This document shows, piece by piece, positions 26,104 to 63,400 of a DNA stretch of 64,000 nt. The DNA lies in the IMG/VR virus record IMGVR_UViG_3300031371_000001, positions 36,652 to 100,651 of that record; one strand, 5' to 3'. Positions within the stretch are counted from its first letter, which is position 1. Each line of letters begins with the position of its first letter. The notes beneath the pieces are model-generated. The model saw nothing but the letters and a program-made list of their open reading frames with translations. It did no database searches and had not been told where the DNA came from. Source of the stretch: a virus. The translations under genes were made by a program, and so were the position numbers.

Positions 26104-26122
26104 TGTTTCCTCCGATTCCCGG

Positions 26123-26157
26123 AAGCGAAAGCGCGGGGCGCCTCGACGCCCGCGCGC
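26123..26157 (-). terminator. Probable terminator after the capsid gene
   Basis: GCGCGGGCGTC-GA-GGCGCCCCGCGC hairpin then TTTCGCTT. Confidence 0.5.
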
Positions 26158-26175
26158 TATCGTCCGAAGGAATGG

Positions 26176-27375: not shown

Positions 27376-27394
27376 TTCGAGCCTCCTCCGTTTT

Positions 27395-27424
27395 GTTATA
27401 GCCTCGACAAAAGCAAGGCGTCAA
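27395..27424 (-). promoter_or_regulatory. Sigma70-like promoter in front of the capsid gene
   Basis: TTGACG-18bp-TATAAC then GGAGGAGG SD. Confidence 0.7.
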
Positions 27425-27442
27425 GTGCCTGTCCTTGTCCCC

Positions 27443-28801
27443 CTACAGAACGCCCTTCCAAAGACCATCGGCCTCCTTGGAGCGTTCCTCCTCCTTCACG
27501 TCGGGTTCGTCCGCCCCCTTGCTTGCGCCGCGGACCTTGGAGATCCCCTCGATCGTCTTTTGCATTTCCGAGATCGTCTTGCCCTGCGCGGCGATCTTCT
27601 CGTTCATTTGCTTCATGGCGTCCGTCTCGGTTCCCCCGTCGCCTTCGTCTTCGCCCTTCAGCAACTTGATCGCATCGTTGATCGTGGACCGCTGGCCTTC
27701 CAGCTTTTCGATCATGGCGTCAACCTTGGACTTGCGCGCCTTCTCCGTGTCCTTGTCGTCGCCTTCGTCGGACTTCTTCTCGGCGTCCTTGTCTTCGGCG
27801 TCGTCGTCGGACTTCTTCTCGGCGTCCTTGTCCTTCTCGTCGTCCTTCTTCGCGTCGTCGGACTTCTTCTCGGCGTCCTTGTCCTTGCCTTCTTCGTCGC
27901 CCTTCTTCGCGCCTTCGTCCTTTTCCTTGTCCTTGTCGATCATTTCCAAAAGCCTCCCTGCCGCTTCGGCAACCGCCACATCACCTTCAGCGGCGGCCCG
28001 TTGCTTGATTGCTATTACGGCGCTCCGGAAAACCTTTCCGTCCTTGCCGAACGGATAGCGAAAGCGCGCCTTCGTTTCTTCGTTCTCTTGTCGATTGACG
28101 CCAAGAAACCACTTGGCATAGTTGGACCAGTCCGGGGGATCTCCAAGGATCTTGTTCCCGTCGTCGCCGCTGAAAGCCCAAGACGATTCACGATCGACCT
28201 TGCCACCTTCGACAAGGGATCGCGCGTGGGAATTCCCGGGGGTGTTCAACTCGGCGGCCTTCTCCGTGTCCGCCTCCTTTGCGAACAGGGTTTCAAGTTC
28301 GAAAAGAACGCCCTTCAGTTCTTCGTTGTCCCCCGCTAGTTCGGACGCCTTCTTCAGACGTTCAACGATAGGGCTTCCCGCCTTCGTCGCGTTCTCCGTC
28401 AGAATGGCGGCGACCGGATAGTCTTCAGCCTTTGCGACTTCGCCGGCCATTGCCGTTGACACGATCCAGCCGTTGCGATTCAACTTGAAGATCACGTCGT
28501 AAAGCGCATCGCGATCGCGTTCTTCGGCTTCACCGCCGATAACCCTTTCGAGAAGGATTCTGGCAAGCGCGCCTTCTTCCTGAAGAAGCTTTTTGTGAAG
28601 GTCCATTGCCTTTTCAACTTCAACGTCCGTCGCCGGTGTCGTCGTTGCTTCGGGATTCATGGCGCCTCCTGCCGCGTTCTTGACCGCTAAAAGTTCTTCT
28701 TCGTTTGCAGCGCGATCGACAATCGAAACCTCCTTCACGAACGCACGGAGGATCCGTGCGCGTGTTTCGTTCTTCTCGCGTTGTTCGATTGTCGTTGGCA
28801 T
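27443..28801 (-). CDS. Capsid scaffold protein with N-terminal protease-like fragment
   Basis: EVSIVDRAAN motif, K/D/E-rich repeats, C-terminal coiled coil ending LWKGVL; directly upstream of the capsid gene. Confidence 0.75.
   Translation of the reverse strand: MPTTIEQREKNETRARILRAFVKEVSIVDRAANEEELLAVKNAAGGAMNPEATTTPATDVEVEKAMDLHKKLLQEEGALARILLERVIGGEAEERDRDALYDVIFKLNRNGWIVSTAMAGEVAKAEDYPVAAILTENATKAGSPIVERLKKASELAGDNEELKGVLFELETLFAKEADTEKAAELNTPGNSHARSLVEGGKVDRESSWAFSGDDGNKILGDPPDWSNYAKWFLGVNRQENEETKARFRYPFGKDGKVFRSAVIAIKQRAAAEGDVAVAEAAGRLLEMIDKDKEKDEGAKKGDEEGKDKDAEKKSDDAKKDDEKDKDAEKKSDDDAEDKDAEKKSDEGDDKDTEKARKSKVDAMIEKLEGQRSTINDAIKLLKGEDEGDGGTETDAMKQMNEKIAAQGKTISEMQKTIEGISKVRGASKGADEPDVKEEERSKEADGLWKGVL
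27765..27883. repeat. Three coding copies of a 29-bp unit (DKDAEKKSD)
   Basis: TCGTCGGACTTCTTCTCGGCGTCCTTGTC at about 27765, 27804 and 27855. Confidence 0.9.
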
Positions 28802-30804: not shown

Positions 30805-33800
30805 TCCGAAGAACCTATCCCCGATCCGATCTTGACTATGGATTCCGGTTTGTTCTTGAACTTGAAGAGGCTTTCGTCTTCTAGTTGCTTCAGAATCTTG
30901 ATAGCTTCTTCCTTCTCGTATTCATCGGACACATAGACACGGGACAGCTTGCCAAGATCGATCCCGTTCTCAAAGATCGTTTCGTCGCCGCCCTTAGATT
31001 CAGAAAGAGCCTTCCAAACGTTTTCAAGATCATCGGGCAACGTCTGGTTCCTCCTGATTCCTCCGTATCCTTCCGTCCAATGCTGAGTTCCGTATTTGTC
31101 GCCTTTATAGGTGTATACGTTCGAGTTGAAGGCGTCGTCAGGCTCAAACCAAATATTCCTGAAATTCTGATTCGAGTTTTGATAAGCCGGGGTCCGAACG
31201 CGACTAAAACCCATCCTTGCGCCGCCATATTGCATATCGGTTCCGGGACTCCAACCCCGTGGGATGATCCCGACGCGGAACTTTTCTTCAGTCGATAAGA
31301 ATCCTGATTTGTTCGACGCAACGTTTCGAAGGAATTCGATCCCGGTATCCCCACTATAGAAATGGTGCAAAAGCTTATGATTCTTCTTCAGCTTCTTCAC
31401 TACTGCCGGATCGATGTCGAACCGTGCCCAAACCGTTTTTCCATAACCGCCGTACCATTGCGCGATCGGCTTCGCCTTGATCGGACCCTTCGCGATCGTT
31501 TCCGCCCAATCGCGAAGCTTCTTCAACTTCGCGTTGTAATTTTCAGTAGCCCAATCGATCGAATCATAGATCGTGTCGCGATAGTATCGCTCCGCGATCG
31601 TCTTCAGCATGATATATTCAAGCTCTTTCTTTGATGCCAACGGGATCGACAAGCCGCGCTTGTCGAGTTCGGCCAAAGCGCCGGCCATGTCTTCCGGCGT
31701 GAATTGCTTAATCGATTTCGAGAACTCGATTTGAAAAAGCCTTTCGGCTGAAAAATGTTCGGCGTTCTCGCCGCCGGCGACGTATCGAATTTTAACGCCG
31801 CCCTTCAATTCGATTTCGTACCCGTTCATTACACGAGCAAGATCGCCAGTGTCTTCAATCTCCCCAAGCGGGTTCAAGTTGTATCGCTTCCAGCCGACAG
31901 GTTTAAAGGCGTTGCTTCCTTGCTGTTCGAACTTCGACAAGCCGAACTTCTTTTTCATGTTCTTGATATTGAATCGGTTCGCCCCCGTATCATACCAAGC
32001 TTTGACTTGGATCTTGTAATCCTGAAGCGCGCCATATCCCCATTTCGATTCGATCTGACGAATAAGATTCAAAGCTTGTTGAACCTGATCATATGAAAAG
32101 TTCCGACTTGCTTCCGGCACAACGGCGTCACCGAAACGATTCCGGATCTTCTTCGAGATTTCTTCGAGTTGCGACCGGAGGGAAGTAAGCTCCGGGAGTT
32201 CCGATATCGGTTGCGCGCCGGCAGTCTCGAAAAGTTTTCTTGCGATTGCGTCACCTTCAGCGGTCAAACGCATTTCAACCATGACGCCGCCTTGCTTCGG
32301 ATAAACAAGCACGGTTCCATCCCGAACGTTATCGCCGCCGACAAGCAAGCTTTTTCCCCTCCACTTCGATTCTTCGACTTGGCTTATAAATTTACTGTCG
32401 CAAGGTGTCGCAAGCCCTTTCTTCTTCAAGGCGTTCGTTTGACCCTTGATCCCCTTCGGCTTTTTGCCGATCACCTTGTCGCGTTCCTTTTGTGCCTTCT
32501 TCCAGATCCCGGACATATCGTCTCGAAGCGAGTTCTTCCGCTTCAACGCTTCCTTCAAGAACGCGGCTTCGTCAAAGTCCGGGAAGGCTTGTGCGCGTTT
32601 GGAGGAATAGGTCTTCAGAATGCTTGTAAAAGTCGCGTCGTCAAGATCGTCAACAGCCTTGAAGAATGAACGGAGTTCCTTGTTGCGAAGGTCAAGCAAC
32701 TTCAGATCACCGAATGCGCCCTTCGCGTATCCTTCAAGAACTTCATTGTATATCGGAGGGGGGAATCCGCCTCCCGCGTTCGGGCTGTAAGTCCAAGACA
32801 ATTTGTCCCGTGGAAAGAACTTGTAGAGTTGCCCTTTGTCGATCCCAAGGATCGAATCGTCCGCGAGAGTGATCAGGTTTTGCGAATGCCCGTCATGGTT
32901 CGAGATCAGCCAGTCGAAGGCGTGTTCTTTCTGGATCCCGATCATTTGATTCTTCGTCAGGTCCGCATAGTTCACGCCCTTGAAATCGCCCTTTACTCCG
33001 TTGATCCACTTGTGGACGGATCCAACCCGTCCATTGTATTCGGTAACGTAGACTTCGGCTGTCGGATGTCCCAAAGCTTCCGCCATTCGAGCGGCGGCGA
33101 CGTCACCATAAGCGCGGAATTCCTCCCCCGCATGGTATGGCTTGAACATCCATTCCGTTCCGTCATTTTCCCTGAAGAACAACTTTTGATGAACGCCGCC
33201 GGCTTCCTTGTGGAAGCTTTGCATTTTCGCAAGATCCTTGTCGAAATGGATCGGCGTCAGCTTGCCTCCCTGCGGCAATTCAAATTCCGGAGTCGGCAAC
33301 GGGACTCCGAACTCCGTTTCGGAATTGATATCGAGAGTGCAACGACAACGAAAATGAAACGGGGGAATCCCATATCCGTTTTTTGCAAGCGCCGAAGCCT
33401 CCGTCTTTGACGTCGAGGAACCGGAAGGGGTGACGCCCGTTCGTTTCTCGATCCCCTTCAAAGAATCCCAACGAATGATCCGCTTGACTTCCTCCGGGTT
33501 CTTCGTCGCAAGCGCACGATTCATGAGATCGGCGCCTTCACTTACTTGAAAGACCGTCCCCTCCAGGTTCGAGCAAACCGGGCAAGTCCGTTCGTCCATT
33601 GGGTTCGATATCGTGTAGCTTTGCGCCCCGACACGTTGAAGTCCGTTCAATGTGCCGAACGTTCTTGCAACAGTCATCGTGTTCGCCGCCAGCCCTTCGT
33701 AATATTGGGCGATCGATCCGCTCCAACCGTGCGGCACTATCGACGCCGCCGTGAAAGCGCCGGGAGCTTTGCTAAACAGGTTTTCGAGTTCGGATTGAAC

Positions 33801-34427
33801 TTTCTTCGCGCCTTCTGCCCTATCGAACCCCTCCTTGATCATTGCATCCGTCGCCGTGTTCGCGATCGTATCAGAAAGCGCCTTGTCGTAATGAACACCG
33901 ATCCAAAAGACTTGATGATCTGACAAGGTTGCAATCGCGTCTTCGTCAATGACAGAAAACGTCGGGGTTAGTGTCGCGATAGGATCCGACGCCTTTTCAC
34001 GTTCAGTCCATTCATCGGAAACCGATTCGAACTTGTGCGGCGATGGATAGGTGATATCGCGATTCCTTGGATACGTTCCAACCGCCTTCTTCAATATCGC
34101 CTCGAATCCGGCTTTGTAGGCTTCCTCCGTCGCCTTTGTATAGAAAGGTCCAAGAGTCTTCGGGAGCGTCTTGAAATGCGAATCGAAGCGATCTAGAAGC
34201 CTTGAAAGCGAAGCTTCGTCCTTCGCTTTCCCGGACGCGATCGATTTCGTCAGTTCGGAAAGCGCAACCTTCGCACGCTTGCGGAATTCACCGATCGACA
34301 CTTCGTAAAGGCGGCGCTCAATCTCGGAAAGCCGCTTCGCTTCTTCAATGACGGCCGCCTTTTGAACGATCGCGTCAAGATGGATCAGCGCCTCGAAGGT
34401 CGAAAGCGCGTGTCCGTCGCAACACAA
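30801..34427 (-). CDS. Long MuF (SPP1 gp7-like) head protein with HipA/PI3K-like kinase and putative ART-like C-terminal domain
   Basis: DERTCPVC...PPFHFRCRC MuF motif; GGVHQK, WMFKP, FDWLISNHDGHSQN, GIDKG kinase motifs; C-terminal LLHH...GFLS...FSRV...ETIF. Confidence 0.85.
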   Translation of the reverse strand: MCCDGHALSTFEALIHLDAIVQKAAVIEEAKRLSEIERRLYEVSIGEFRKRAKVALSELTKSIASGKAKDEASLSRLLDRFDSHFKTLPKTLGPFYTKATEEAYKAGFEAILKKAVGTYPRNRDITYPSPHKFESVSDEWTEREKASDPIATLTPTFSVIDEDAIATLSDHQVFWIGVHYDKALSDTIANTATDAMIKEGFDRAEGAKKVQSELENLFSKAPGAFTAASIVPHGWSGSIAQYYEGLAANTMTVARTFGTLNGLQRVGAQSYTISNPMDERTCPVCSNLEGTVFQVSEGADLMNRALATKNPEEVKRIIRWDSLKGIEKRTGVTPSGSSTSKTEASALAKNGYGIPPFHFRCRCTLDINSETEFGVPLPTPEFELPQGGKLTPIHFDKDLAKMQSFHKEAGGVHQKLFFRENDGTEWMFKPYHAGEEFRAYGDVAAARMAEALGHPTAEVYVTEYNGRVGSVHKWINGVKGDFKGVNYADLTKNQMIGIQKEHAFDWLISNHDGHSQNLITLADDSILGIDKGQLYKFFPRDKLSWTYSPNAGGGFPPPIYNEVLEGYAKGAFGDLKLLDLRNKELRSFFKAVDDLDDATFTSILKTYSSKRAQAFPDFDEAAFLKEALKRKNSLRDDMSGIWKKAQKERDKVIGKKPKGIKGQTNALKKKGLATPCDSKFISQVEESKWRGKSLLVGGDNVRDGTVLVYPKQGGVMVEMRLTAEGDAIARKLFETAGAQPISELPELTSLRSQLEEISKKIRNRFGDAVVPEASRNFSYDQVQQALNLIRQIESKWGYGALQDYKIQVKAWYDTGANRFNIKNMKKKFGLSKFEQQGSNAFKPVGWKRYNLNPLGEIEDTGDLARVMNGYEIELKGGVKIRYVAGGENAEHFSAERLFQIEFSKSIKQFTPEDMAGALAELDKRGLSIPLASKKELEYIMLKTIAERYYRDTIYDSIDWATENYNAKLKKLRDWAETIAKGPIKAKPIAQWYGGYGKTVWARFDIDPAVVKKLKKNHKLLHHFYSGDTGIEFLRNVASNKSGFLSTEEKFRVGIIPRGWSPGTDMQYGGARMGFSRVRTPAYQNSNQNFRNIWFEPDDAFNSNVYTYKGDKYGTQHWTEGYGGIRRNQTLPDDLENVWKALSESKGGDETIFENGIDLGKLSRVYVSDEYEKEEAIKILKQLEDESLFKFKNKPESIVKIGSGIGSSE

Positions 34428-34439
34428 CGGCGCCCCCTA

Positions 34440-36152
34440 TCAAGACACGTCTGAAGGATACCCGCTCGAAAGCTCCGTTTCGAGTTTCCGACGTATCCCA
34501 AGGAGGGTTTCGACCGTCGTTTGAACAACGCCGCCCTTCGATTTGACGGCTTCAACGGACTCCGGGGCAACTTGTGTCGGAACAGACATCGCCGCCTTGT
34601 TCTTGACCTTTTCGGCCATCGTGAGAGTGAAGGGGATGTCCAGAGGGAAACCCGGTTCCGGCGGCAGATCGCCAAGCGATTGATTCATAATATCTTCGAT
34701 GATCCTTCGCGCGATCCGCGGCGTCATGGCGCCGGTTTTTTCAGCCATTTGCATAACCCGGATCAAGTCTTCGTCGTTCGTGACGTTCGGACTATTCGAC
34801 TTGAAGACGTGATAAACAACTTCGAGTTGAGGCATGATCACCCGATTGATGAAACGATCGAATTCCTCCCGTTCGGGTCCGAAGACTTGTTCCTCCGCAA
34901 GCTTCCTCGAAACGTGCGCCGTCGCGCGGTTGTACTGTTCCCCTGATCCGATGAACAGCGGCGGAAGCCTCCAAGCCTGTCGGATCTTCCTTTCGTTGTT
35001 CTTCGAATAGTCTTGGAAAAGTTCATCGCTCGTTTGAACATCTTTCAACGGAACGGCGTTGATCTTTACGTTCGTGTTCTCACCTTCGATATCGCCTTCC
35101 GCTTCGACAACGACGAACCGGGAAAAGTCCTTCTTCCCTGAACGCGCCTCCGTCGTGAACTGGTTGAGACGATCGATAGTGCCTTCCGTCAGCATTCCGT
35201 TTGCGACAAGCAACAGCATTGAAGGGATATTGTTCCCCTTCAATGTCGTGTAGTTGACCTCCTCCGCGGCCCGTTCACCGAACACCGTTAGAAGTTGCGA
35301 GACGTAACGGGGCATTCCATAGGGCGATCGCGGCGAGTACAGGCGAAGGTGGATGATCTCGTTTGCGCGCTTGCTTTCGGGGAGTTCTTCCGCCGCCCTT
35401 CCGAACACGGGTTCTCCGCTGTCAAGATCGAAGACGCGCGGATCTCCGAATTCCTTGAACCAAACGCCAGTAACGCCGCCGTCCTTGCTTTGGAACTTCG
35501 GGCGAAAGCGCCTCGTGATCTTTGCCGTTCTCAATTCGTGTGAACCGTCAGGCTTCAACACGAGTCGCTTTTCCTCGACTCGAATCCGTGCCTTCGAGAG
35601 AATCCCAAGCCAAACGTCACGGGAAGCGATATGTTCGAACCCGACGATTTCCCCGCTTTCAGGATCGCGGATCACTTCAATGTAAGCGTTGCCGGTGAAT
35701 TCGAGATCACGACGAAGGCGCCGCCTGAAATCAACGAAGCTTCCTTCAAGATAAGCGTATCTATAGAAATTCACGAGACGCGCGTATTCGTCTTTTACAG
35801 GTTGCGCTTCGTCCTTCGGATTGATGGGGATGATTTGATGCCCGAACCCGTCGATATTCACTTCCATTGCTTGCACGCATTCGGAAAGCGTTCCGGAGTA
35901 TTCGCCAAGCTCCGACAAGAATTCGAAATCGAGCGGACGACGAATCAACCTCCCGTCTCGAAGGTACGTTTCAAGCGCCGAATCTTCGTCTGCGATCTTT
36001 TTACTCGAAGCGCCGCCTTCGCCCGTCACGTCTTCACCTTCAATCGTGAAAACCTTTAGCCGGGGAACTACCTTCGCAAGCTTCGCGCGCCGTTCTTCTT
36101 CGAGACGATCCGCGCGCCCGCTATCGACAACGCCTTTTTCCGTGTCCGTCAT
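34440..36152 (-). CDS. Portal protein (PBSX family)
   Basis: DLEFTGNAYIEVIRD, ANEIIH, YGMPRY, RLPPLFIG...YNRATA motifs. Confidence 0.93.
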   Translation of the reverse strand: MTDTEKGVVDSGRADRLEEERRAKLAKVVPRLKVFTIEGEDVTGEGGASSKKIADEDSALETYLRDGRLIRRPLDFEFLSELGEYSGTLSECVQAMEVNIDGFGHQIIPINPKDEAQPVKDEYARLVNFYRYAYLEGSFVDFRRRLRRDLEFTGNAYIEVIRDPESGEIVGFEHIASRDVWLGILSKARIRVEEKRLVLKPDGSHELRTAKITRRFRPKFQSKDGGVTGVWFKEFGDPRVFDLDSGEPVFGRAAEELPESKRANEIIHLRLYSPRSPYGMPRYVSQLLTVFGERAAEEVNYTTLKGNNIPSMLLLVANGMLTEGTIDRLNQFTTEARSGKKDFSRFVVVEAEGDIEGENTNVKINAVPLKDVQTSDELFQDYSKNNERKIRQAWRLPPLFIGSGEQYNRATAHVSRKLAEEQVFGPEREEFDRFINRVIMPQLEVVYHVFKSNSPNVTNDEDLIRVMQMAEKTGAMTPRIARRIIEDIMNQSLGDLPPEPGFPLDIPFTLTMAEKVKNKAAMSVPTQVAPESVEAVKSKGGVVQTTVETLLGIRRKLETELSSGYPSDVS

Positions 36153-37636
36153 ATCAACCCGATCTCCCGACGCTTCTTCCTCTTGCGAACTGTCGAGGCA
36201 CGATAAGCAAGATCGAAGGCGTCAAACCAATCCTTCGTTGAAGTATTGGGGAACTTGACGAATTTTTCAATCAGGTCTTGAAAGTGATCGAGGAACACGA
36301 CACGCCCCGACTCGAAAAGTGGGGTCAACCTCCAAGCACGCGACACCTTGTCCGTTCCGGTGTGCAAGCCAAAGACGGGGACTGAACGATCGGCATCTTG
36401 GAGGTTTTGCAGTTGCGCCTCCTGATAACTGTTCGTCTCGATCCCGATCCGGCTTGCGTCCCATTCCTTCCAAGCATCTATGATTCGCTTCGTTTGAGCG
36501 GAGAAACGAAGCTTCCCTTCAAAGTAATCGACAACGTAATAAGTCGAGGCTTTCCTATCAAACCCTAGAACGATGATCGAGAAGTTGTCCGATTCTTCCT
36601 TTTGCTTGATCGCGAGATCGACCCCAACGAAGTATTCGAGGTCCCGGGGCAGTTCGTCCCGTCGACAGGTTCGGCAATCGTCATAACTGAAGATTTCGCC
36701 CTTCATCGCTTCAACGTCATTCAACATTTGGGCGGCAAAGATAATGTTTCCCATCTTTGCGCGGCGCTTCAATAGTTCTTCAGTCGAGAACTTTTCCTCC
36801 CAAGCCGAGCGGCCCTTCACGTCCGCCTTCCCTTCTTCATTTATCAACGCCGGCAAGTGATAGACGGCGCCCTTCATTTCGCCGTCGATCAAGTGACCAT
36901 ATAGATCCGCGAAGTGGTATCGAGTCCCGATAACGGCCATTTCTCCCCTATGTTCGAAATCACCGGACGGGGGTTCGAGGCAAGGAAGAAGGACTTTGTA
37001 ATACCAAGTCTCGACGTTCTTTCGCTGTCGCTCCGTCTTGGCGTTCTTTTCGTCAACCAAGTCGTCCCCGATTATCAAATCAAAGTGTCGTGAAACGATC
37101 GTTCCTTCGACTCCAACGGTTTCGATCGTGGATTCCTTCAACGCCTTCGTCCGCTGTCGAACAGTGATCGAAGCCGAACCCCATTCGTCATTTCCAACGA
37201 AGTTCCCGAAGAAGTATCGGAACCGCTCGTTTTGTTCAAGGTGCATCTTGATAGCGTTTAACATCCCCTTTGCGTTTTCTGCCGTCTTGCTCGAAAGGAG
37301 GATCCGGATGTCTTCCGGCCGCTTGATCAAAAGGTGAATCGTCTTGACGATCGTTGCAATGATCGTCTTGCCGAATCCGCGCGGCGCAAGGATCAGGTAT
37401 TCGCCTCCAACGTGCTTGAATTGAAATTGCGCGATCTGCAAATGATGCGGCGCAACGTCGTATCCAAGAATCCGCGCCAAGATGTCAACACGGTTCTTCT
37501 CAATCACGAGCTTTCGGATCCACGCGCGGCGCATCCCACGCGCGACGTCGAGACGTTCGACAAGTTCATCCCTGTTCAACTTGTCGAAGTTGCGCGGTAT
37601 CAGTTCAGGAAGGACTAGTTCCGGCGCCGAAGACAC
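36149..37636 (-). CDS. terL: Terminase large subunit
   Basis: APRGFGKT Walker A, LIIGDDL Walker B, GTRYH, GVDLA and DWFDA nuclease motifs. Confidence 0.95.
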   Translation of the reverse strand: MSSAPELVLPELIPRNFDKLNRDELVERLDVARGMRRAWIRKLVIEKNRVDILARILGYDVAPHHLQIAQFQFKHVGGEYLILAPRGFGKTIIATIVKTIHLLIKRPEDIRILLSSKTAENAKGMLNAIKMHLEQNERFRYFFGNFVGNDEWGSASITVRQRTKALKESTIETVGVEGTIVSRHFDLIIGDDLVDEKNAKTERQRKNVETWYYKVLLPCLEPPSGDFEHRGEMAVIGTRYHFADLYGHLIDGEMKGAVYHLPALINEEGKADVKGRSAWEEKFSTEELLKRRAKMGNIIFAAQMLNDVEAMKGEIFSYDDCRTCRRDELPRDLEYFVGVDLAIKQKEESDNFSIIVLGFDRKASTYYVVDYFEGKLRFSAQTKRIIDAWKEWDASRIGIETNSYQEAQLQNLQDADRSVPVFGLHTGTDKVSRAWRLTPLFESGRVVFLDHFQDLIEKFVKFPNTSTKDWFDAFDLAYRASTVRKRKKRREIGLI

Positions 37637-40278: not shown

Positions 40279-41715
40279 TCAGTCGAGGATCGTGATCTTC
40301 TTCCGCCCCTTCAGGACGACGAAGATCCGTCCGTTTATCTTCGTCCAACCGACCGTTCCGGACACCTTCACGCGAAGCCCGATCGGGGACCTCTTGAGAG
40401 TCGCCTCCGAATAGTCGAATCCGTAATCCTTCACGACAACCCTCCAGCCGTTATCGGCCTCGATCTTCACCTTCTGGAAAGAGTTGTAACGGGGCCGCTC
40501 CACGAACTCGGTTGCGTCGATCGTCCCCTCGAACTCGATCTTGTCGTCCACGGCCGGCGCCGGCGCCGTGTCCACCTTCGGCGCCTCCTTCTTCGCAGTC
40601 TCGCGATCAAGCGCCGTCTTGATCGACTCGATCCACCGGGCCGACATATGCCAGCCCTTGACGATCGCGTTCTTCGAGTTCTTCCAGAAAGTCCGACCGT
40701 CCTCCTCCGCGTTCGCCATGATCTGAAGCATCGCCCAACGCTCCGGGGTTCCGCAAACCTCCAACGCCCGCACGTCGGCCGCCGTGTCCCTGGCGATCTT
40801 CCTGGCGACTCGCCTCCAAGTGGCATCGAAGCCAACCCGCTTGATCGCCGTGAAGATACCGTCAACAACCTTGTCCGTGTAGGCGGCGCCCGAACGAATC
40901 GCCGGGATTCCCCGCTTCGCGTCCTCGATCATTTTCGAGGTCACGCAAGGGGGGATCGCATCCGTGTCCGAAGCGTCCTCGATAAGCGCGCGGAAGGTGT
41001 ATCCCCAACCGGACCCGGAATCGAGCAAGTCGTCAAGTTTCTTGTTCACTGAAACGATCTTGCGCGTGACGTAGGCCGCCCGCTTCATCGCCTTCGCCAC
41101 GGCCGCCGCGTCCTCCGGATCCGGGTAAACGGCGTCAACGTAATTCACGATGCACTCGCAACCCACAAGGAGGGTTAATTTCTTCGAGTCGCAAACGAGC
41201 GGGTAGAAGTAGCGCACGGGCCGGTGTCCGCAAAGCCGGCAGATCCCGGGGTCGCCGCCGTCCCCGAACTTCACCTCCGCGTCCGGGCCGGCAACCTCCT
41301 TGAACCCTGCGATCATGATCGATGTGTACTCCTCCGGGGTGGGGCCGTAGCCGCCAAGAACGACGTAACCGCCGCGCTTCCCACGAAGGGGGCGCCAATC
41401 GTCCGCCGTCGTTCCGAGGTGGAGGAAGGTGCGCCCGATTCTGATCAGGTAGGAAAGCTTTTCGCGCGTGACGGCGATCGCCTCCTCCGTCTTCGCTCCC
41501 CTGACTTCCTCCTCCAGGGAATTGATATCGACCTTCACGCAACCCGTGTCGTTCAGGTTCTTCAGTTCCCCAAGCAATACCTCCAGAGTCACCTCCGGGA
41601 GGTCTGTTGCCTTCGGCTTGCTGAAAAGGCTTCGCGTTGTCTCGATTGCAGTTCCCATGATTTCCTCCGTTGTTCCGTTTCCGTTGTTCCCGTTGTTGTT
41701 GTTCCCGTTGTTCAT
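40279..41715 (-). CDS. Hypothetical protein with Zn finger and probable C-terminal OB fold
   Basis: CRLCGH...VGCEC; beta-rich C-terminus; Asn/Gly low-complexity N-terminus. Confidence 0.75.
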   Translation of the reverse strand: MNNGNNNNGNNGNGTTEEIMGTAIETTRSLFSKPKATDLPEVTLEVLLGELKNLNDTGCVKVDINSLEEEVRGAKTEEAIAVTREKLSYLIRIGRTFLHLGTTADDWRPLRGKRGGYVVLGGYGPTPEEYTSIMIAGFKEVAGPDAEVKFGDGGDPGICRLCGHRPVRYFYPLVCDSKKLTLLVGCECIVNYVDAVYPDPEDAAAVAKAMKRAAYVTRKIVSVNKKLDDLLDSGSGWGYTFRALIEDASDTDAIPPCVTSKMIEDAKRGIPAIRSGAAYTDKVVDGIFTAIKRVGFDATWRRVARKIARDTAADVRALEVCGTPERWAMLQIMANAEEDGRTFWKNSKNAIVKGWHMSARWIESIKTALDRETAKKEAPKVDTAPAPAVDDKIEFEGTIDATEFVERPRYNSFQKVKIEADNGWRVVVKDYGFDYSEATLKRSPIGLRVKVSGTVGWTKINGRIFVVLKGRKKITILD

Positions 41716-42338: not shown

Positions 42339-42446
42339 GTTTCCCGTTGCCATGATTAAGTTATAGCCCGATAGGTATCGGATGTCAAGCCTTAGAGTCG
42401 ATTATTTTCGGGTCCTATGTCGTTTTTTCTCTAAGTGTGCTGAAAT
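42339..42446 (-). promoter_or_regulatory. Class I (early-type) promoter cassette, copy 1
   Basis: TTGACA(42388-42383)-17bp-TATAAC(42365-42360); ~105-bp homology to 58312-58418. Confidence 0.85.
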
Positions 42447-45745: not shown

Positions 45746-45951
45746 CGATCGTCCCGCCTGAAAAGAGCGGCTTCGCATTGCCAACAAAGCTTTCCCGACT
45801 CCGGAAGCCGGGGCGCCTCCTGGACCCTAACGCCGCCCATATCGAACGGAAGCGATTTGCCGCAAAGACAATTTCGAATTCGAAGATCGTTCTTCGAATG
45901 CCACTTCGTCCAGGGGCGCCCGGGTTTCTTCCATCGAATGAAAACGATCAT
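45742..45951 (-). CDS. Small Cys/His Zn-finger protein
   Basis: WH...CLCG...CWQC. Confidence 0.55.
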   Translation of the reverse strand: MIVFIRWKKPGRPWTKWHSKNDLRIRNCLCGKSLPFDMGGVRVQEAPRLPESGKLCWQCEAALFRRDDR

Positions 45952-46658
45952 CGATCGGAACCGTTGCCAGGTACAAAAGCCGGAAGCTTCACTCCTTCCT
46001 TCGCCGCAACCTTTTCGATTTCTTCGAGCATTCGTTGAAGCGCGAAGGCTTCGCCAATAAGCGCCTTCGGTTCAACCCCATTGCGGGCGGCTCTTGCCGC
46101 GGCATCCGTCACCTTGCGGCGTCCAGCTTCGGCAAGATCCCGACAGATCGAAAAAGCCTTTTGCATCCCGGCGCCGAAGTATTCGCCCGGGTCTATCTGC
46201 GGCGCCTTCACGTCAACGGGACGTGATTTCTCCCGGCAGTCTTCGACCTGTTCGCATTCGTCGCAAACAAAGTGTTCCGGTTCGAAGAAACCGAAGCAAG
46301 ACTTCACAGGGTTCTTGCGGCATTCCTCGACGTGTCCGCAGTCTTCACAGTCCTTCGTTCCTTTACGGTGCCAGAGTCCGAAGCAATCGGGACGACAGGC
46401 GGCGTCCGTCGCGTCGTAATCGATCCCGTTCCGCTCCCGCCTTTCGGCTTCGCGTTCCTCGCGGCGCCGGCGGTTGCGATCCGCCTGCTGCTTCTTCGCG
46501 CGAACCTTCGCTCCCGCCGCTTGCGCGTTTCTGCAAGAGGCTTCCCAACCGCACCTTTCGCACTCCCGCGCGCGGTTATGCCAACGCGAAAAACAATCCG
46601 GGGAGGCTGTCGTCCCGTAGGCATTTGCCTTGCGCGGCTGCAACTTCTTCGCTTCCAT
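45948..46658 (-). CDS. Protein with three C-x10/11-C-x2-C-x5-C repeats
   Basis: See finding on the four-Cys module. Confidence 0.75.
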   Translation of the reverse strand: MEAKKLQPRKANAYGTTASPDCFSRWHNRARECERCGWEASCRNAQAAGAKVRAKKQQADRNRRRREEREAERRERNGIDYDATDAACRPDCFGLWHRKGTKDCEDCGHVEECRKNPVKSCFGFFEPEHFVCDECEQVEDCREKSRPVDVKAPQIDPGEYFGAGMQKAFSICRDLAEAGRRKVTDAAARAARNGVEPKALIGEAFALQRMLEEIEKVAAKEGVKLPAFVPGNGSDR

Positions 46659-46660
46659 GA

Positions 46661-46954
46661 TTAATCATTCCTCCGTTCGAGCCAAAGGCCGCGTTTGCGA
46701 TACGTCCCCTTCTCGACAATGCGATCCATGCGAACGCCGGTCGTCCTTCCGGAAGGCCAGCGGACATGAAGGAAGCACGTTCCGACACTGACGACGATCC
46801 CGACACGCCGGGGGTATTCCTTCCCTCGATAGAACTTGCGTTCGATGTCGTGAAGCCGATCGCCCGGGTGGATTTCGTCCGGTTGGCGCCGCGGCTGTTG
46901 CGGCCCGGAGTATCCAAGGATCATTCGCGGCGGACGCGGCGGGCGCCATTCCAT
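46661..46954 (-). CDS. Hypothetical SH3-like protein
   Basis: IHPGDRL...GIVVSV...VRW. Confidence 0.55.
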   Translation of the reverse strand: MEWRPPRPPRMILGYSGPQQPRRQPDEIHPGDRLHDIERKFYRGKEYPRRVGIVVSVGTCFLHVRWPSGRTTGVRMDRIVEKGTYRKRGLWLERRND

Positions 46955-47733
46955 TATTCGATCTCCGGAGTCACGAGCGAAACGTTGATCCGCCCGGGAT
47001 CGTCTTCGTCTCGATCAATCTTGACTCGCACGCCTTCGAGCGCCTTGGACAAGTGCGAGTCTTCGTCTGCGATCTCCCGAAGCCCCGTTTCCAAGCGGCT
47101 TCGGATCGAGGCGATCGCCCCTGGCGTCAATGGCTTCCCCTTGAACTCCGAAAGCAAGCTTCCGAACTTGCGATCGACAACCTCCTTGACGGTCGGACGT
47201 GTCAGGATCGAGCGCCTGATTTCTTCGTCCTTGTCCATCTTGGACGCGAAGACTTCGAGGCGTTCCTTGTCTCGATAGAGAACGATACACGATCCCTTGT
47301 GCTTGCACTTCGCACAACCGGCGTCCGTCGCGTCATAGTCGATCCCGTGACACTCCGGGATGACCCCGACAGGATCCGCCGGGGGATCGAGCGTTGCTCC
47401 GGACAAGCCGGATAGCTTCGAGCATTCGGGCTTGTGGGAACACGCCTTGCAGTAATTGTCGGAAGCCTCGAAGTCGATCGCGAAGCAACGCGGCTTGCCG
47501 TGACGGTTGATCTTCACGGGGACACCTTCGGCCGCCGCTGTCGCCTTCGCCGGATCCTTGCGGAACTTCGCGCGGAGGTCTTCGAGCGATCCGACTTTGG
47601 GCTTCGGCTTGTCGTCTTCCTTCTTCATGAGTCTAGCCATTCCCTTGCTTGCCTTGCGTTCCTCGATTTCTTCCATGATCGACGCAAGCTTCACGAACGG
47701 GGCAACGGGATGATATGAATTCAACTCGAACAC
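46954..47733 (-). CDS. Modular protein: GSL-motif, two four-Cys modules, sheath-C-terminus-like domain
   Basis: VGSLEDLRAKFRKDP; two Cys modules; FKGKPLTP...DRDEDDPGRINV. Confidence 0.7.
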   Translation of the reverse strand: MFELNSYHPVAPFVKLASIMEEIEERKASKGMARLMKKEDDKPKPKVGSLEDLRAKFRKDPAKATAAAEGVPVKINRHGKPRCFAIDFEASDNYCKACSHKPECSKLSGLSGATLDPPADPVGVIPECHGIDYDATDAGCAKCKHKGSCIVLYRDKERLEVFASKMDKDEEIRRSILTRPTVKEVVDRKFGSLLSEFKGKPLTPGAIASIRSRLETGLREIADEDSHLSKALEGVRVKIDRDEDDPGRINVSLVTPEIE

Positions 47734-58311: not shown

Positions 58312-58418
58312 GTTTCCCGTTGCCATATCTAACTTATAGCCCGATACCCTTCGGGAGTCAAGCCTTTGTGTCGATTATTTTCGGGTCCAATGTCGTTTTT
58401 CCGCTAAGTCGTTGAAAT
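58312..58418 (-). promoter_or_regulatory. Class I (early-type) promoter cassette, copy 2
   Basis: TTGACT(58361-58356)-17bp-TATAAG(58338-58333); homologous to 42339-42446. Confidence 0.85.
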
Positions 58419-58583
58419 GATAGGCGGAAAAGAACGCCCGAAGACGCGGTTTCGGCCCATTCCGGCGCCTTTACCGGAGGCGCCCGTATCCGCCCCTTGA
58501 AGCCCCGAAGCCCCGGGGGGATACGGATACAGCCCCTCCCCCTATCGGACGCCATGGCGCCCGCCTCCGGGCTTCCTGGAGGG

Positions 58584-59483
58584 TCATTCGTCAGCCGGTG
58601 GAATGGGCGGCCCGTCGAATAGCTTGACAGTGAAGACGTGCCCGCAATCCTCGCAACGATACGACGCCCCGACGCCCGGTGATTCTGGCGACAAGACGCG
58701 AAGTCCCTTTCCCGTCTTGCAATGCGGACAGCCGTGTGTTTCAGAAAGGCGATCGCGTTTCTTCTTCGCCGCGCGAACCTTCTTTTTCCATCTATGGCCG
58801 CACACCTTGCAAAACAGACTTTTAACTCGAAAGTCTTCATAGCTCGTTTCGATATCACTTCCCTGGTTCCCACACTCCGGACAAATAACGACGTGTTCCG
58901 GCAAGTCGTCTTCGGCGCCCGCCGGCCGGCGCAAGATCCAATGCGCCCCGCAATCGCAAGCGAATTCAGCGCGCGCCCCATTCGCCTTCGAGTCGAAGAA
59001 CCAGCTTCCCTCCGTGTTCTCGCCGCACACCGGACAGATCGATTCATCGGGTTTCGTTCCGACGAAAGGCGCGCACCTGAAGTAACTTGGAGGTCCGTAC
59101 CAAGAATGCCCGCAACCGTCGCACTCGAAATCGATTCGTGAAGGCGTCCATTCGTTTTCTTCTTCGCGCGGCTTCCCGAAGACAAGCGCGCCGCAGACTT
59201 TGCACGTCATGAAGAACGATTCGTTGACGGGTTTCCTGGCGTGATCGACGCCTAGATAGAAGTCTGATTCGGGATCGCCTCCCGGAGTCACCTTCCATTT
59301 GAAGTCACATTCGTCACACTTGAACGGAAACCGGACGTGTCTTTCCGTCACGCGCGCGAATACCTTGGAGCGACAGCGCCGGCCGCATCGTGGACAGTTG
59401 CGAAACAACGTCCGTGCTTCCGGTTCCTTCGAGAACGAATCCCGGAAGTCTTCGAGCGATCCGGTGATCGGCTTGTCACTCAT
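58584..59483 (-). CDS. Poly-zinc-ribbon protein (about 5 ribbons) with N-terminal GSL-motif
   Basis: Ten CxxC/CxC knuckles; ITGSLEDFRDSFSKEP. Confidence 0.8.
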   Translation of the reverse strand: MSDKPITGSLEDFRDSFSKEPEARTLFRNCPRCGRRCRSKVFARVTERHVRFPFKCDECDFKWKVTPGGDPESDFYLGVDHARKPVNESFFMTCKVCGALVFGKPREEENEWTPSRIDFECDGCGHSWYGPPSYFRCAPFVGTKPDESICPVCGENTEGSWFFDSKANGARAEFACDCGAHWILRRPAGAEDDLPEHVVICPECGNQGSDIETSYEDFRVKSLFCKVCGHRWKKKVRAAKKKRDRLSETHGCPHCKTGKGLRVLSPESPGVGASYRCEDCGHVFTVKLFDGPPIPPADE

Positions 59484-60823
59484 GATCTTCGTGTCGTCCA
59501 TATCGAAGCGGGTTCGCTGAAGTCCGCGTCTTGTTGTCGCGTCCAGATCGCGGCGCACATTTTACACTCGAAGTGATAGGCGCTTGTCGAATCATCAATC
59601 GAGCCAACTTCAAGCTTGCCTTCGATTCCCGGGGATTCACATTTCGGGCAAACGTCGATCGCCTTCTCCGACATCGGGATCGGTCCAACGTCCGGGACGA
59701 CTTCGGGAGCAACCTTCGCGCGTCCGCCGATTGAAACTCTGAAATGTTTTCCGTCTTCCTTCAGTTTCCCGGCTTCCTTCAACTTCTCGATTTCTTCTTC
59801 CGTCCAGGAGGTAATATGGATGCCTTCTTCGATTGCGTATTTCTCGCCGCACTCGCAAGTGTAAGCTTTCATCGGACGCTTCCCGGTTCCCTTTGCAGTT
59901 ACCCGCATGGGATCGAAAGCCCGTCCACACTTGCACCTTGCGATCGTCCCTTCTTCAAGTCTTCGAGGATATTTGATCCGCGTCTTGGCGCCGCAGTCGC
60001 AATGGAAGATTGAGAATTCTTCTACGTCTTTGATATGGATGCCTTCGATCTTCTTTCGACACGCTGGACAATCGCCCGTGTCTTTCGGGAAGTCAGGATC
60101 GACGGTTAGACTTCCTTCAAAATGTCCGGTTGGGACTGCCCAAGTTTCGCCGCACTTGCAACGGAACGAAGCGCCGGTTATCCGAAAACTTCTATCGTCT
60201 TCGAGTTTTTTGATCGGCATTCCTTTGACCGTCCGGGCGCAAGATGGGCAGGTGTCAAAGTAGCTTGTCTCGATCGGCAATCCGTCTTCGGCGCTTGTCT
60301 TGTAATCGACCTTGACTATCGAATGCGCGCCGCAAGGACAGTTCGATACATAGACCGTGTGTCCATTTTCCTTCAATATCGCAAAGACGTTCAACGTTCT
60401 TCCGCATTCCAGACAAAGATGCTTCATATCGGGAACGGGATCCGGGAGTCCGATCGGAAGCTCGAAGACGCTACTGAAGTAATAGAAGCCGTCGTCGCAG
60501 TCGTGACACTTGAAGCCGATCGTCGGTTCGCCGGCTTCCTTGATGGGTTCTCCCGGGATCAATGTGTGACAATGTGGACATGATGCAAACCACCGGGCCA
60601 CGTATGATCGCGACTTGCGTTCGTGTCCAATGTCCGCGTACCACTTGTGATCGCAGTCCGGGCAAGTAAAGCCTTTCTTCATGTCGCCAAGCGTCAGGAC
60701 CGGAAAGCATTGGATCGCCCCGCAATGCGGACACGAGATCATGATCTCGCCGCTCGGAAGCTTGTCGGGTTTCGCCCTGAACAGGCTTCGCATTCTTTCA
60801 AGCGATTTGCTTTTGCCCCTCAC
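59480..60823 (-). CDS. Poly-zinc-ribbon protein (about 7 ribbons) with N-terminal GSL-like motif
   Basis: Fourteen CxxC/CxC knuckles; KSLERMRSLFRAKP. Confidence 0.8.
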   Translation of the reverse strand: MRGKSKSLERMRSLFRAKPDKLPSGEIMISCPHCGAIQCFPVLTLGDMKKGFTCPDCDHKWYADIGHERKSRSYVARWFASCPHCHTLIPGEPIKEAGEPTIGFKCHDCDDGFYYFSSVFELPIGLPDPVPDMKHLCLECGRTLNVFAILKENGHTVYVSNCPCGAHSIVKVDYKTSAEDGLPIETSYFDTCPSCARTVKGMPIKKLEDDRSFRITGASFRCKCGETWAVPTGHFEGSLTVDPDFPKDTGDCPACRKKIEGIHIKDVEEFSIFHCDCGAKTRIKYPRRLEEGTIARCKCGRAFDPMRVTAKGTGKRPMKAYTCECGEKYAIEEGIHITSWTEEEIEKLKEAGKLKEDGKHFRVSIGGRAKVAPEVVPDVGPIPMSEKAIDVCPKCESPGIEGKLEVGSIDDSTSAYHFECKMCAAIWTRQQDADFSEPASIWTTRRS

Positions 60824-61623
60824 CTTCGCCTCCGTCGCCTGTCCCGGCTTCCGCGTCCCTCGAACCTGGACCGATAACGGGAATCGAGTTCGTCTTCCTC
60901 TTTCATCCTTTCGATCTCGCGTTCCTCCTCGATCGCCGCTTGCGCGTCAGCTTCGATCATCGCGTCGATCTCGGATTCCCGATCTTCTTCAGCACGCCAG
61001 ATATCTTCTTCGTATTCGTCCCATGCGCGATCGTGCATCGTGTATTCATCTGGATAGTGTGCTTCGTCCAATGAAGCCGTTGGATCTTCAGGGTCGTAAT
61101 ACTTCGACGGACGATCGTTCCAAGGGATATCGAGTGCGTTTCGCATCCATGCCGCGCCGCAATTCGGACACTCGAAATTGACCGTTGACGTTCCCTTCGG
61201 GGGTTCAGCCTCGACGGGTGCCATTCCGCATTTCGGGCAAGTGTCCGTGAAAGCCCCTGGTTTGCGTCCTGAAGGCTCCGGAGCCTCGACGGGCGCCTCC
61301 ATATCAGGCAAGGACTCCCGGGGCGTTCTCGGCTTGCTGAAGGCGTCACGGACGGCTTCCAGGGAACCGCCGATCGTCTCGACGGGATCGCTAGATTCGA
61401 TGTCGTCAGCAAACGGATCTTCCCCAAGCTTGAAATCGATCCCGATCCGGTCGATTGGCTTGTCCATTTTGACAGTTACAGCTTTCGAGATTTCTGTAAG
61501 CGAGTCGTCAAATTCCTTGATCTTGAAAGCGCGGCTGGCTTCGGCCATTGTTATCCCGGTTTTCGCAATCTCCTTGATTGCCCTTGTCAGGAAACGCGCG
61601 CAACTATCGCCGCTCTTCTTCAT
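60820..61623 (-). CDS. GSL-motif protein with Zn ribbon and acidic tail
   Basis: IGGSLEAVRDAFSKP; CPKC/CPNC. Confidence 0.75.
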   Translation of the reverse strand: MKKSGDSCARFLTRAIKEIAKTGITMAEASRAFKIKEFDDSLTEISKAVTVKMDKPIDRIGIDFKLGEDPFADDIESSDPVETIGGSLEAVRDAFSKPRTPRESLPDMEAPVEAPEPSGRKPGAFTDTCPKCGMAPVEAEPPKGTSTVNFECPNCGAAWMRNALDIPWNDRPSKYYDPEDPTASLDEAHYPDEYTMHDRAWDEYEEDIWRAEEDRESEIDAMIEADAQAAIEEEREIERMKEEDELDSRYRSRFEGRGSRDRRRRRR

Positions 61624-62612
61624 ACGATCTTCGACTTGTCGGAATCGACTTTGACCCCCGGTCCCGGGAACGATCCGGGATCGTGCGGGTCAAGGTCAAC
61701 GTAGGTTCGGCAACTTGGATGAACCGGCGGTTCGCCTTCGCGTGTTAGTTCTTTCATCTTGTCGTGAAGCATCACTTCGGGCATTTCGTAATCGTTGCCG
61801 CAAGAGTCGCAATGGACCTTGTATATTGGACCAGTGAATCCAAGCACTGTCCCTTCGCGTGAAGAATCAACGCCGCCTCCGACGTGTCCGCACTTCGGGC
61901 AAGCGCCGTCCGCCGCGACTGTCGAGAGTTCACGCGCCGGCGTCGGCTCCGCTTTCTTCTCCCGCGGCTTCGAGAATGCTTCCCGCACGTCGTCAAGTGA
62001 ACCGCTCACCTTCTCGACGGGAGGCGCCTTGCCGATAGCCTTGACCGCTTCTTCCCGGCCGCCGACGTGTCGCGCGTTTGCGATCATCCGGGAAAGAAGT
62101 CTCGTTTCATGCTGAAAATCTTTCTTGCGTTCGTCGCAGTCTTCACGATTGCAAAGCGCGTCTTCGACAAAGGCAAACTCGATCGTCTCGAAACTTGTTC
62201 CTTTCGCAAGGTGATAGAACACCTTTTCGAGTGAGAACAACGCCAACGCCGCTGGCCTCCTTTTAACGGCTTCGCCTCCAATGATCGCCTTCCAGAATTC
62301 GGAATCCCCGATGATCTTCGAAAACCGCATTGGCCTGATCATCTTGTCGGGTTCGAACAACGTTCCTCGATAGGCGCAATCGTGAAGGATCCCGCGCCAA
62401 CGTTGGATCGTGTCGTGTAGCTGAATGACCTTGCTTTCCTCGAATCCAAGATCACGCAAGGCAACGTTGATATGGTATTCGCAAGCTTCAACGTCCTTCA
62501 AATCCTCCCGACGTATCCCCCCGATCAGATAGAAGGCGTGAAGGACGATCCGCTCGATTGCCGGCGATGTTCGCACGGCTCCCGGAAAATCATCCTTCGT
62601 CGCGGAAGTCAT
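61620..62612 (-). CDS. GSL-motif protein with helical domain and Zn ribbon
   Basis: VSGSLDDVREAFSKP; CPKC/CDSC. Confidence 0.75.
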   Translation of the reverse strand: MTSATKDDFPGAVRTSPAIERIVLHAFYLIGGIRREDLKDVEACEYHINVALRDLGFEESKVIQLHDTIQRWRGILHDCAYRGTLFEPDKMIRPMRFSKIIGDSEFWKAIIGGEAVKRRPAALALFSLEKVFYHLAKGTSFETIEFAFVEDALCNREDCDERKKDFQHETRLLSRMIANARHVGGREEAVKAIGKAPPVEKVSGSLDDVREAFSKPREKKAEPTPARELSTVAADGACPKCGHVGGGVDSSREGTVLGFTGPIYKVHCDSCGNDYEMPEVMLHDKMKELTREGEPPVHPSCRTYVDLDPHDPGSFPGPGVKVDSDKSKIV

Positions 62613-63400
62613 GGTTTCCTCCGGAACCGCCTTCGCACTTCTTCGAGCGCCCCTCCGATTGTTTCGACGGGGGTTCGGATCTCCGTGTCGCGAAGCGGAA
62701 AGCGCGCCATTCGGATCGCTTGCTGAAGTTCGTTCGCCGCTTGGTACAATTGCATTTGGAATCCGTCGAGGTTTTCGCCTAGCAAATGCCCCTCCGCATA
62801 CTTCGCAAACTTCGAGAAGTCGGATAGCCCCAACGGCGTGTCGTCTGCAAGCTTACAGAAGACACCTTCCATTTCGAGCAACGTGCAAATGAAACGGATC
62901 TTCTCGTTCAGTTCTTCAACCCATCGCCCTTTAGTGTGCGTCCCTTCGAGGCGCCCCTCCCAAACTTCGAAATCATCCTTGAAGACGGTTTGAAATCCAT
63001 CCTGGAAATATTCGAGAATTTCACCTTCCGGCGGCGTGTAACCCTTCTCGACGCACGATCGAAGAAGCGGGATCCACTTTTGATAGAGCTTCCGCATTGA
63101 AGTATCGCGTTCAAAGACCGTGCAAGCTCCCGGAAATGCCCGGACGATATCGCCGGCGCCGTCAAGCCTCATGCCTTCATCGCAATTCGCAAGCCCGATG
63201 AACAACTTTGACATCCCGCACATTGCTTGAACGGCACGATCGGTAATCTCTGATTCTTTTTCCGCCTTCGAGACTTCAAGCCCGAACGCCGCCGGATCCA
63301 AATCGATCGAAGCGGTCAAGCGCCCTTTCTTCAGATCCTCCTCCGAAGGTTCTTCGACGGTCACCTTGAAAGGCACGTCCGCTGATTCTTTCGACGGCAT
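62609..63400 (-). CDS. GSL-motif protein with helical domain
   Basis: C-terminal IGGALEEVRRRFRRKP. Confidence 0.75.
   Translation of the reverse strand: MPSKESADVPFKVTVEEPSEEDLKKGRLTASIDLDPAAFGLEVSKAEKESEITDRAVQAMCGMSKLFIGLANCDEGMRLDGAGDIVRAFPGACTVFERDTSMRKLYQKWIPLLRSCVEKGYTPPEGEILEYFQDGFQTVFKDDFEVWEGRLEGTHTKGRWVEELNEKIRFICTLLEMEGVFCKLADDTPLGLSDFSKFAKYAEGHLLGENLDGFQMQLYQAANELQQAIRMARFPLRDTEIRTPVETIGGALEEVRRRFRRKP

Follow-up and report, generated by a model that had tools for sequence, protein, structure and literature searches.

A short helical motif shared by twelve proteins of a 100-kb myovirus, a candidate docking tag

The motif and the proteins that carry it

The window analysed in this study comprises the last 64 kb (bases 36652-100651) of the IMG/VR virus record IMGVR_UViG_3300031371_000001, which is linear, 100,651 bp long and rated 98% complete. 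The virus is a myovirus, and genes for the terminase, the portal, a MuF protein of 1208 amino acids (aa), the prohead protease, the sheath and the tape measure are all present. Towards the end of the window lies an operon of five minus-strand genes, W1 to W5 (Table 1), which were found to overlap as previously described: the four junctions read ATGA, ATGA, GTGA and ATGA, the GTG start codon of W2 overlapping the stop codon of W3. Each of these genes encodes one copy of a short peptide motif, hereafter referred to as the tag. The seven peptides quoted in the preliminary description of this DNA, two of which belong to genes elsewhere in the window, were all recovered from their genes on the minus strand. 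A scan of the whole genome brought the total to 13 copies in 12 proteins, which we have chosen to call carriers. The six copies outside the window, at genome positions 9230, 8117, 9672, 9947, 10468 and 16056, are also on the minus strand.

The general form of the tag is [G/S]-[S/T]-[L/I]-[E/D]-x-h-R-x-x-F-[S/R]-K-x-P, and the alignment of the 13 copies gives the consensus x-[G/S]-[S/T]-[L/I]-[E/D]-[E/D/x]-[F/V/L]-R-x-x-F-[S/R]-[K/R]-x(0,1)-P. Counting from the leucine or isoleucine as position 0, the arginine at +4 and the phenylalanine at +7 are invariant in this alignment, and the hydrophobic residues at 0, +3 and +7 make up one helical face. The motif is strongly enriched over background: the regular expression [LI][ED]..R..F[SRK] was matched 13 times, as compared with a mean of 0.45 and a maximum of 4 in 2000 within-protein shuffles. 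With a matrix built from the same 13 copies that it scores, these copies reach 25-34 bits and the next-best six-frame match 14 bits. Given the enrichment over shuffled proteins and this gap in score, a chance origin of the motif was rejected. At positions where two copies have the same residue, the codon is shared in 217 of 424 cases; the leucine and isoleucine codons used are CTC, ATC, CTT, TTG, ATA and CTG, and the arginine codons are CGG, CGA, CGT and CGC. As codons vary between copies at conserved residues, selection acts on the peptide and not on the DNA or RNA, which bears out the earlier interpretation of the synonymous divergence. A DNA or RNA repeat was rejected because of the same codon differences.

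Seven copies are N-terminal, four are internal, in linkers, and two are C-terminal, counting one gene with a corrected start (see below). Proline accounts for 14.5% of the residues flanking the motif, compared with 5.9% over the carriers as a whole. AlphaFold2, run without an alignment, predicted residues 206-213 of W4 (LDDVREAF) as a short helix between long coils, with a low predicted local distance difference test score (pLDDT); the model of this protein is poor apart from its zinc ribbon (pLDDT 74-85). These results are consistent with the view that the motif is a portable tag found in flexible regions at any position of a protein.

The carriers had been presented as seven unrelated proteins belonging to a family of zinc-ribbon proteins. 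They number twelve and are indeed mostly unrelated, with some exceptions. When the tag was masked, the paralogs W1 and W2 remained clearly related (E 6e-12), W2 and W3, which share a zinc ribbon, were weakly related, residual similarity was seen between the 89- and 91-aa carriers, and the remaining carriers showed none. The zinc-ribbon label had to be abandoned for the group, since CxxC pairs occur in only about half of the carriers. In Pfam and PHROG, no known family was found for the carriers beyond weak zinc-ribbon matches. These lie away from the motif, which is covered by no described family, and no description of it was found in the literature, in agreement with the earlier statement that it is not recognised from any described system. 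No relative of W5 was found among 5.8 billion proteins. An Atlas search with two carriers gave no usable feature match, its structure matches all had template modelling scores below 0.5, and an exact-word search returned no relatives.

The open reading frame (ORF) of 478 aa listed in Table 1 most likely represents a gene that starts at an internal ATG, at window position 41658, preceded by AACAACGGAGG; a GGAGG ribosome-binding site lies six bases before this ATG. With this start, the weakest copy of the tag, MGTAIETTRSLFSKP, becomes N-terminal. The ORF itself begins with the poly-asparagine stretch MNNGNNNNGNNG (window 41656-41715), which is built of AACAACGG repeats that end in this GGAGG and is probably an untranslated leader. 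The same AACGGAGG leader is also seen ahead of the ATG in the carrier gene at genome 10509.

The peptide AIFLEEFRQLFPG, near a plausible TTG start in the ORF ahead of the gene for the PHP protein, may be a degenerate 14th copy. An extra match to the regular expression at window 26257 was not accepted as a tag: it sits in the major capsid gene, in a segment (GRDIRIEKDRDIFK) that is kept across the related phages and mimics the loose pattern. Two cysteine-rich neighbours, at window 45948-46658 and 46954-47733, share the peptide GIDYDATDA(A/G)C and appear to be paralogs; the tag is on the second only.

Table 1. Coordinates of the carriers and of other features mentioned in the text
Feature	Position	Strand	Description
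W1	window 58584..59483	-	299 aa, about nine CxxC pairs; N-terminal tag, residues 7-20, window 59421-59462
W2	window 59480..60823	-	447 aa, multi-zinc-ribbon paralog of W1; N-terminal tag, window 60767-60808
W3	window 60820..61623	-	267 aa, acidic, one zinc ribbon; internal tag, window 61330-61368
W4	window 61620..62612	-	330 aa; internal tag, window 61965-62003, between a helical N-terminal domain and a zinc ribbon
W5	window 62609..63400	-	263 aa; tag at extreme C-terminus, window 62612-62653
Cysteine-rich carrier	window 46954..47733	-	259 aa; tag near N-terminus, window 47551-47592
478-aa ORF	window 40279..41715	-	weakest copy of the tag, window 41614-41646
546-aa carrier	genome 7643-9283	-	two copies, one N-terminal, one at residue 379
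Three small carriers	genome 9447-10509	-	N-terminal copy in each
Two of the small carriers	genome 9447-9716 and 9713-9988	-	89 and 91 aa
184-aa carrier	genome 16041-16595	-	C-terminal copy
CobT-like gene	genome 31050-32900	-	
Scaffold gene	window 27443-28801	-	
Major capsid gene	window 26176-27375	-	
Terminator-like hairpin with T run	window 58434..58455	-	closes the five-gene operon
Sigma70-like promoter of the next operon	window 58361-58333	-	3' of the terminator-like hairpin

Leaders in related phages

The phage belongs to a large clade of roughly 100-kb phages, whose terminases are 40-48% identical to its own. Twelve whole records from this clade, labelled G001 onward, were compared; Xanthomonas phage JGB6 was left out, its record being too fragmented. 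Terminase relatives of 65-69% identity also exist and lie outside the twelve. The terminase search of IMG/VR returned nothing above 48% identity, scans of genome and metagenome contigs revealed no close relative, and the terminases of cultured phages are less than 27% identical.

With regard to the occurrence of the motif in related phages, a point raised in the preliminary description, the outcome was divided. The exact motif was absent from all twelve relatives, and a strict DNA pattern of it had no match in IMG/VR; related N-terminal leaders were found in several of the relatives. In G001, four overlapping genes start with MKL[D/E][D/E]LRxx[L/Y/F], followed by a basic, proline-rich linker and zinc ribbons, and similar leaders occur in G003, G004, G005 and G006 at scattered loci far from the replication block. 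The core of the tag is retained across phages with a guanine plus cytosine (GC) content of 47-63%. This type of leader is older than the phage studied here. A different arrangement was observed in G002, which lacks CobS and CobT (CobST): four cysteine-rich paralogs with 4 to 18 CxxC pairs (genome 81829-86526, minus strand) have another N-terminal leader in common, (M)EKTELLKLGRTGYL or MEKTELLKLGRTGYL.

We also identified a family of small proteins whose gene overlaps or abuts the start of the DnaE gene in G001, G003, G004, G005, G006, G008, G009 and G010. Its N-terminal peptide is MPTL[D/E]ELRRWxxGExVxGLP. In G001, G003-G006, G008 and G009 the proteins start with MP[T/S][L/I]x[E/K][L/M/I]RxW (RRRF in G006), followed by xxGxx[V/I]xGLP, and in G010 the N-terminus is longer and diverged (MASAEDIEETRMSPSREDWERWLAGEEVEGMP), only the W-L-x-G-E-x-V-E-G-M-P half being retained. 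After the leader come a variable linker and a weak ExoX-like_C domain. A profile search of 1.84 billion representatives yielded 871 relatives of the family; of the 150 best, about a hundred are complete proteins, 100-190 aa long, that begin with the leader peptide. The leader is the most conserved part, with 2.84 bits per column over the first 20 residues, compared with 2.09 for the domain and 1.05 for the linker. In the AlphaFold2 model of a family member, residues 4-11 form a helix with a pLDDT of 88. Foldseek gave no match for the small protein, none of the cultured phages holds the family, and no description of its leader was found in the literature.

The family leader and the tag have the core [S/T]-L-[D/E]-[D/E]-h-R in common, which in both precedes a hydrophobic or aromatic residue and a flexible linker. 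The slightly wider core [S/T]-[L/I]-[D/E]-[D/E]-h-R, placed at the opening of a flexible region, was also found in the tag when 94 family N-termini were compared with the 13 copies. In contrast, the tryptophan at +6 and the G-E-x-V-x-G-L-P segment of the canonical leader are absent from the copies of the study phage. The natural variants MPTLDELRLAFRKGELDP, MPTLDEIRQKFANAQP and MPSLEEMRRRFAPG bridge the two, and those that have both phenylalanine at +7 and K-x-x-P are nearly the same as the tag. Judging from these sequences, the tag and the leader may be related, the link being no more than moderate.

Possible partners of the tag

We favour, with fair but not high confidence, the reading that the motif is a portable docking or address helix for one shared partner. 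It would be an amphipathic helix of about 10 residues, with the leucine or isoleucine at 0, the hydrophobic residue at +3 and the phenylalanine at +7 on one face, the arginine at +4 and acidic residues at +1/+2. Glycine or serine would cap the start of the helix, K-x-P would stop it, and the proline-rich flexible flanks would hold it away from the body of the protein. The tag, present on at least 12 mostly orphan proteins that evolve fast, would recruit all of them to the common partner; the relatives have the same kind of leader on tandem zinc-ribbon proteins and on the conserved small protein translationally coupled to DnaE. Both the binding and the identity of the partner are inferred. The partner is probably encoded by the phage itself, within the replication-gene block; the context points to the replication module, and nothing specifically favours RNA polymerase, the clamp, ClpX or packaging.

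The replication genes directly precede the window and comprise those for DnaB, primase, a CobS-like MoxR ATPase, a CobT-like VWA protein, a split DnaE (a PHP protein and a core), an HU-like protein, a fused Mre11-Rad50, a methylase, RuvC and a uracil-DNA glycosylase. When gene content was compared across the clade, CobS and CobT were the only conserved genes of the study phage to share the distribution of the leader. The co-occurrence count was limited to records with a completeness of 90% or more. Of these, seven have both CobT and the DnaE-coupled family, four have neither, and one, G004, is truncated at the contig end concerned. The four with neither form two separate, well-supported terminase clades, and no convincing leader was found in them. 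Within the clade examined, the leader type is thus restricted to genomes that also encode CobS and CobT. The phage proteins are true CobT homologs (PDB 9uka, E 9e-51). [quoted passage not shown]

MoxR/VWA-MIDAS pairs are known from CobS-CobT, CbbQ-CbbO, NorQ-NorD and the MIDAS of Rea1 with its ubiquitin-like ligands: the MIDAS captures an acidic residue of the client and the ATPase pulls. In such machines, the MIDAS site of the VWA protein has been described as capturing a client peptide (PMC7159879), and cellular CobST is believed to engage CobN through the MIDAS face (bioRxiv 10.64898/2026.10.09.757910). The study phage encodes a pair of this kind with an intact MIDAS, and the leader occurs only in those clade members that have the pair. 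In contrast to what is proposed here, a tag shared by many clients has not been described for such a pair, and viral cobST genes are widespread without an established client (PMC8651126). The CobT-like VWA protein, together with the CobS-like MoxR ATPase, is the leading candidate for the partner, an assignment that we make tentatively and with low confidence; its MIDAS metal would hold the conserved acidic residue of the tag. Pairs of viral CobS and CobT occur widely among tailed phages and are usually read as cobalamin helpers. A broader proposal, which we regard as doubtful, is that CobS and CobT of this clade form a MoxR-VWA remodelling machine of the replication module and not a cobalamin helper; the helix would mark its clients, among them the factor coupled to the polymerase and a variable complement of zinc-ribbon proteins, expanded to 12 proteins in the study phage.

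Several observations weigh against a docking helix read by CobT. The matrix of the DnaE-coupled family, which is dominated by tryptophan, has just three of the 13 copies in its 15 best matches, at ~9-10 bits, and the copies reach at most about 10 bits; the link between leader and tag therefore rests on the six-residue core and the bridging variants. No ExoX-like_C family homolog was found in the study phage (hmmsearch of the genome). The high pLDDT of the family peptide could mean that it packs on its own C-terminal domain. Ligands of MIDAS sites are usually loops or extended peptides, not helices. The co-occurrence could be explained by linkage, since the leaderless genomes lack the entire primase-to-DnaE block (CobS, CobT, ThyX, Tmk and the small protein); the scattered zinc-ribbon genes with leaders are not in this block, and the numbers are small. 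The arrays of G002 indicate that leader-plus-zinc-ribbon arrays exist without CobST. Finally, the tag is missing from Vibrio phage ICP2, although CobT and CobS are part of its replication module. This phage is a cultured podovirus in which cobT and cobS (33357-36230) lie directly upstream of the genes for primase, helicase and DNA polymerase, a layout which indicates that the replication-module context of viral cobST reaches beyond the clade of the study phage.

That the tag docks the carriers on a conserved hub of the host during early host takeover appears unlikely to us; such a hub could be RNA polymerase, the beta clamp, single-stranded DNA-binding protein (SSB) or a chaperone/protease adaptor. 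As a conserved host target predicts, the tag core is retained over the wide range of GC content given above, and the carriers are small orphan genes in overlapping operons with sigma70-type promoters. DnaE is present and profiles of SSB and the beta clamp found no match to either in the phage genome, so that the phage must use host factors. The tag does share with the replisome hub motifs (QL[S/D]LF clamp-binding motif, PIP box, SSB tail) that it is portable, lies in flexible regions at any position and would bring many clients to one hub, and that the conserved carrier of the relatives is coupled to a polymerase gene. Nevertheless, it fits none of their consensus sequences. The clamp-binding motifs Q-L-[S/D]-L-F and Q-x-x-L-x-x-F have a glutamine and an L-F end, which the tag lacks, and its arginine at +4 is invariant and its core is predicted to be helical; bacterial clamp-binding motifs are bound in extended form. 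None of the 13 copies has the acidic run and I-P-F end of the SSB tail. A host target also does not predict that the leader is absent from clade members without the CobS-CobT block. Less probable than a host hub is a capsid-targeting signal comparable to encapsulin cargo peptides or to the T4 capsid targeting sequence (CTS), by which the carriers would enter the prohead and be ejected together with the DNA. The G-S-L start of the tag may resemble that of encapsulin cargo peptides, and the phage has head-borne effectors, namely the MuF protein and a protease fused to extra domains. The diverse, fast-evolving internal proteins of T4 (IPI, IPII, IPIII and Alt) share only one short amphipathic peptide, which serves as their address (PMC3012670), and the CTS is the closest analogue of the tag in logic. 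However, the position of the tag, its gene context and the type of promoter speak against packaging here. In T4 the CTS occurs strictly at the N-terminus, the prohead protease removes it, and it directs cargo into the scaffold core, whereas six of the 13 copies of the tag are internal or C-terminal. The carrier genes are grouped with replication and early genes; no copy lies within the head-module genes, and in the relatives the conserved carrier is coupled to DnaE and not to genes of the head. The promoter and operator type of one carrier operon recurs at the replication operon, and the capsid promoter lacks the operator dyad. Moreover, proteins that reach 447 aa and have about nine CxxC zinc-ribbon pairs would be unlikely cargo to pass through the tail.

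That the tag is a recognition or cleavage site, at which the carriers are trimmed or cut in two by the HExxH N-terminal domain of the CobT-like protein or by the prohead protease, seems improbable. The internal copies of W3 and W4 fall exactly between domains, the H-E-x-x-H of the CobT N-terminal domain (H78, E79, H82) is invariant in all eight clade homologs, and one of these weakly matches the putative metallopeptidase domain DUF2201_N. Zincin peptidases that cleave small, variable proteins have also been described in MoxR-VWA systems (PMC7159879). Against this, the domain is homologous to that of bona fide CobT, which is not known as a peptidase; helices are in general poor protease substrates; and the peptidase annotation of viral cobT has been called mistaken (PMC8651126). 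Most improbable of all is the absence of any common partner, in which case the helices would bind one another in hetero-oligomers of carriers, or the motif would be the remnant of one diverging paralog family. The residual similarities among carriers noted above would agree with this, as would the tandem zinc-ribbon paralogs of the relatives. The motif is, however, far better conserved than the bodies of the proteins, occurs twice in one of them, uses all three kinds of position and is found on proteins without a zinc ribbon or detectable similarity, and about ten residues are generally too short for a stable coiled coil.

The preferred reading, a docking helix with one shared partner, matters for the annotation of such genomes, as shared address peptides offer one of the few ways to approach what orphan phage genes do. 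Should the helix be read by one partner, one binding experiment would assign to a single pathway a dozen orphan proteins of the study phage, together with hundreds of proteins that bear the leader in the relatives. If this partner is CobT, the puzzling viral cobST genes would gain a function. The tag could also serve in engineering as a portable recruitment peptide. The genome-wide count, the DnaE-coupled family, the survey of the clade and the co-occurrence with CobST are new in this study.

Operon signals and genome organisation

The promoter type TTGAC-N17-TATAA precedes both the CobS operon and the carrier operon at genome 10509. The spacer of the carrier-operon promoter contains a CGAT..ATCG dyad, of which the CobS copy is degenerate. 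Five near-identical minus-strand promoters, TTGAC(A/T)-N17-TATAA(C/G), were found in total, at window 58333-58361 and 42360-42388 and at genome 34101-34129, 10533-10561 and 773-801; a spacer dyad of the CCGAT..ATCGG type is present in four of them and degenerate at genome 34101-34129. The promoter of the capsid gene (window 27395-27424) has the same hexamers, and the dyad is absent from it. The capsid gene itself is hidden in the window by a plus-strand ORF of 566 aa (25969-27669), which has no family match and overlies the real gene on the minus strand.

The ends of the record meet if the genome is circularly permuted, which would bring the operon at 95-100 kb near the cluster of carriers at 7.6-16.6 kb. 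The CobS-like ATPase (genome 32902-34089) has an N-terminal zinc finger of the Ros/MucR type (Pfam, E 3.5e-08). DnaE is split in the study phage into a PHP protein of 349 aa and a core of 882 aa (genome 26467-30125), and in all twelve relatives PHP and core lie on a single ORF of 1250-1990 aa.

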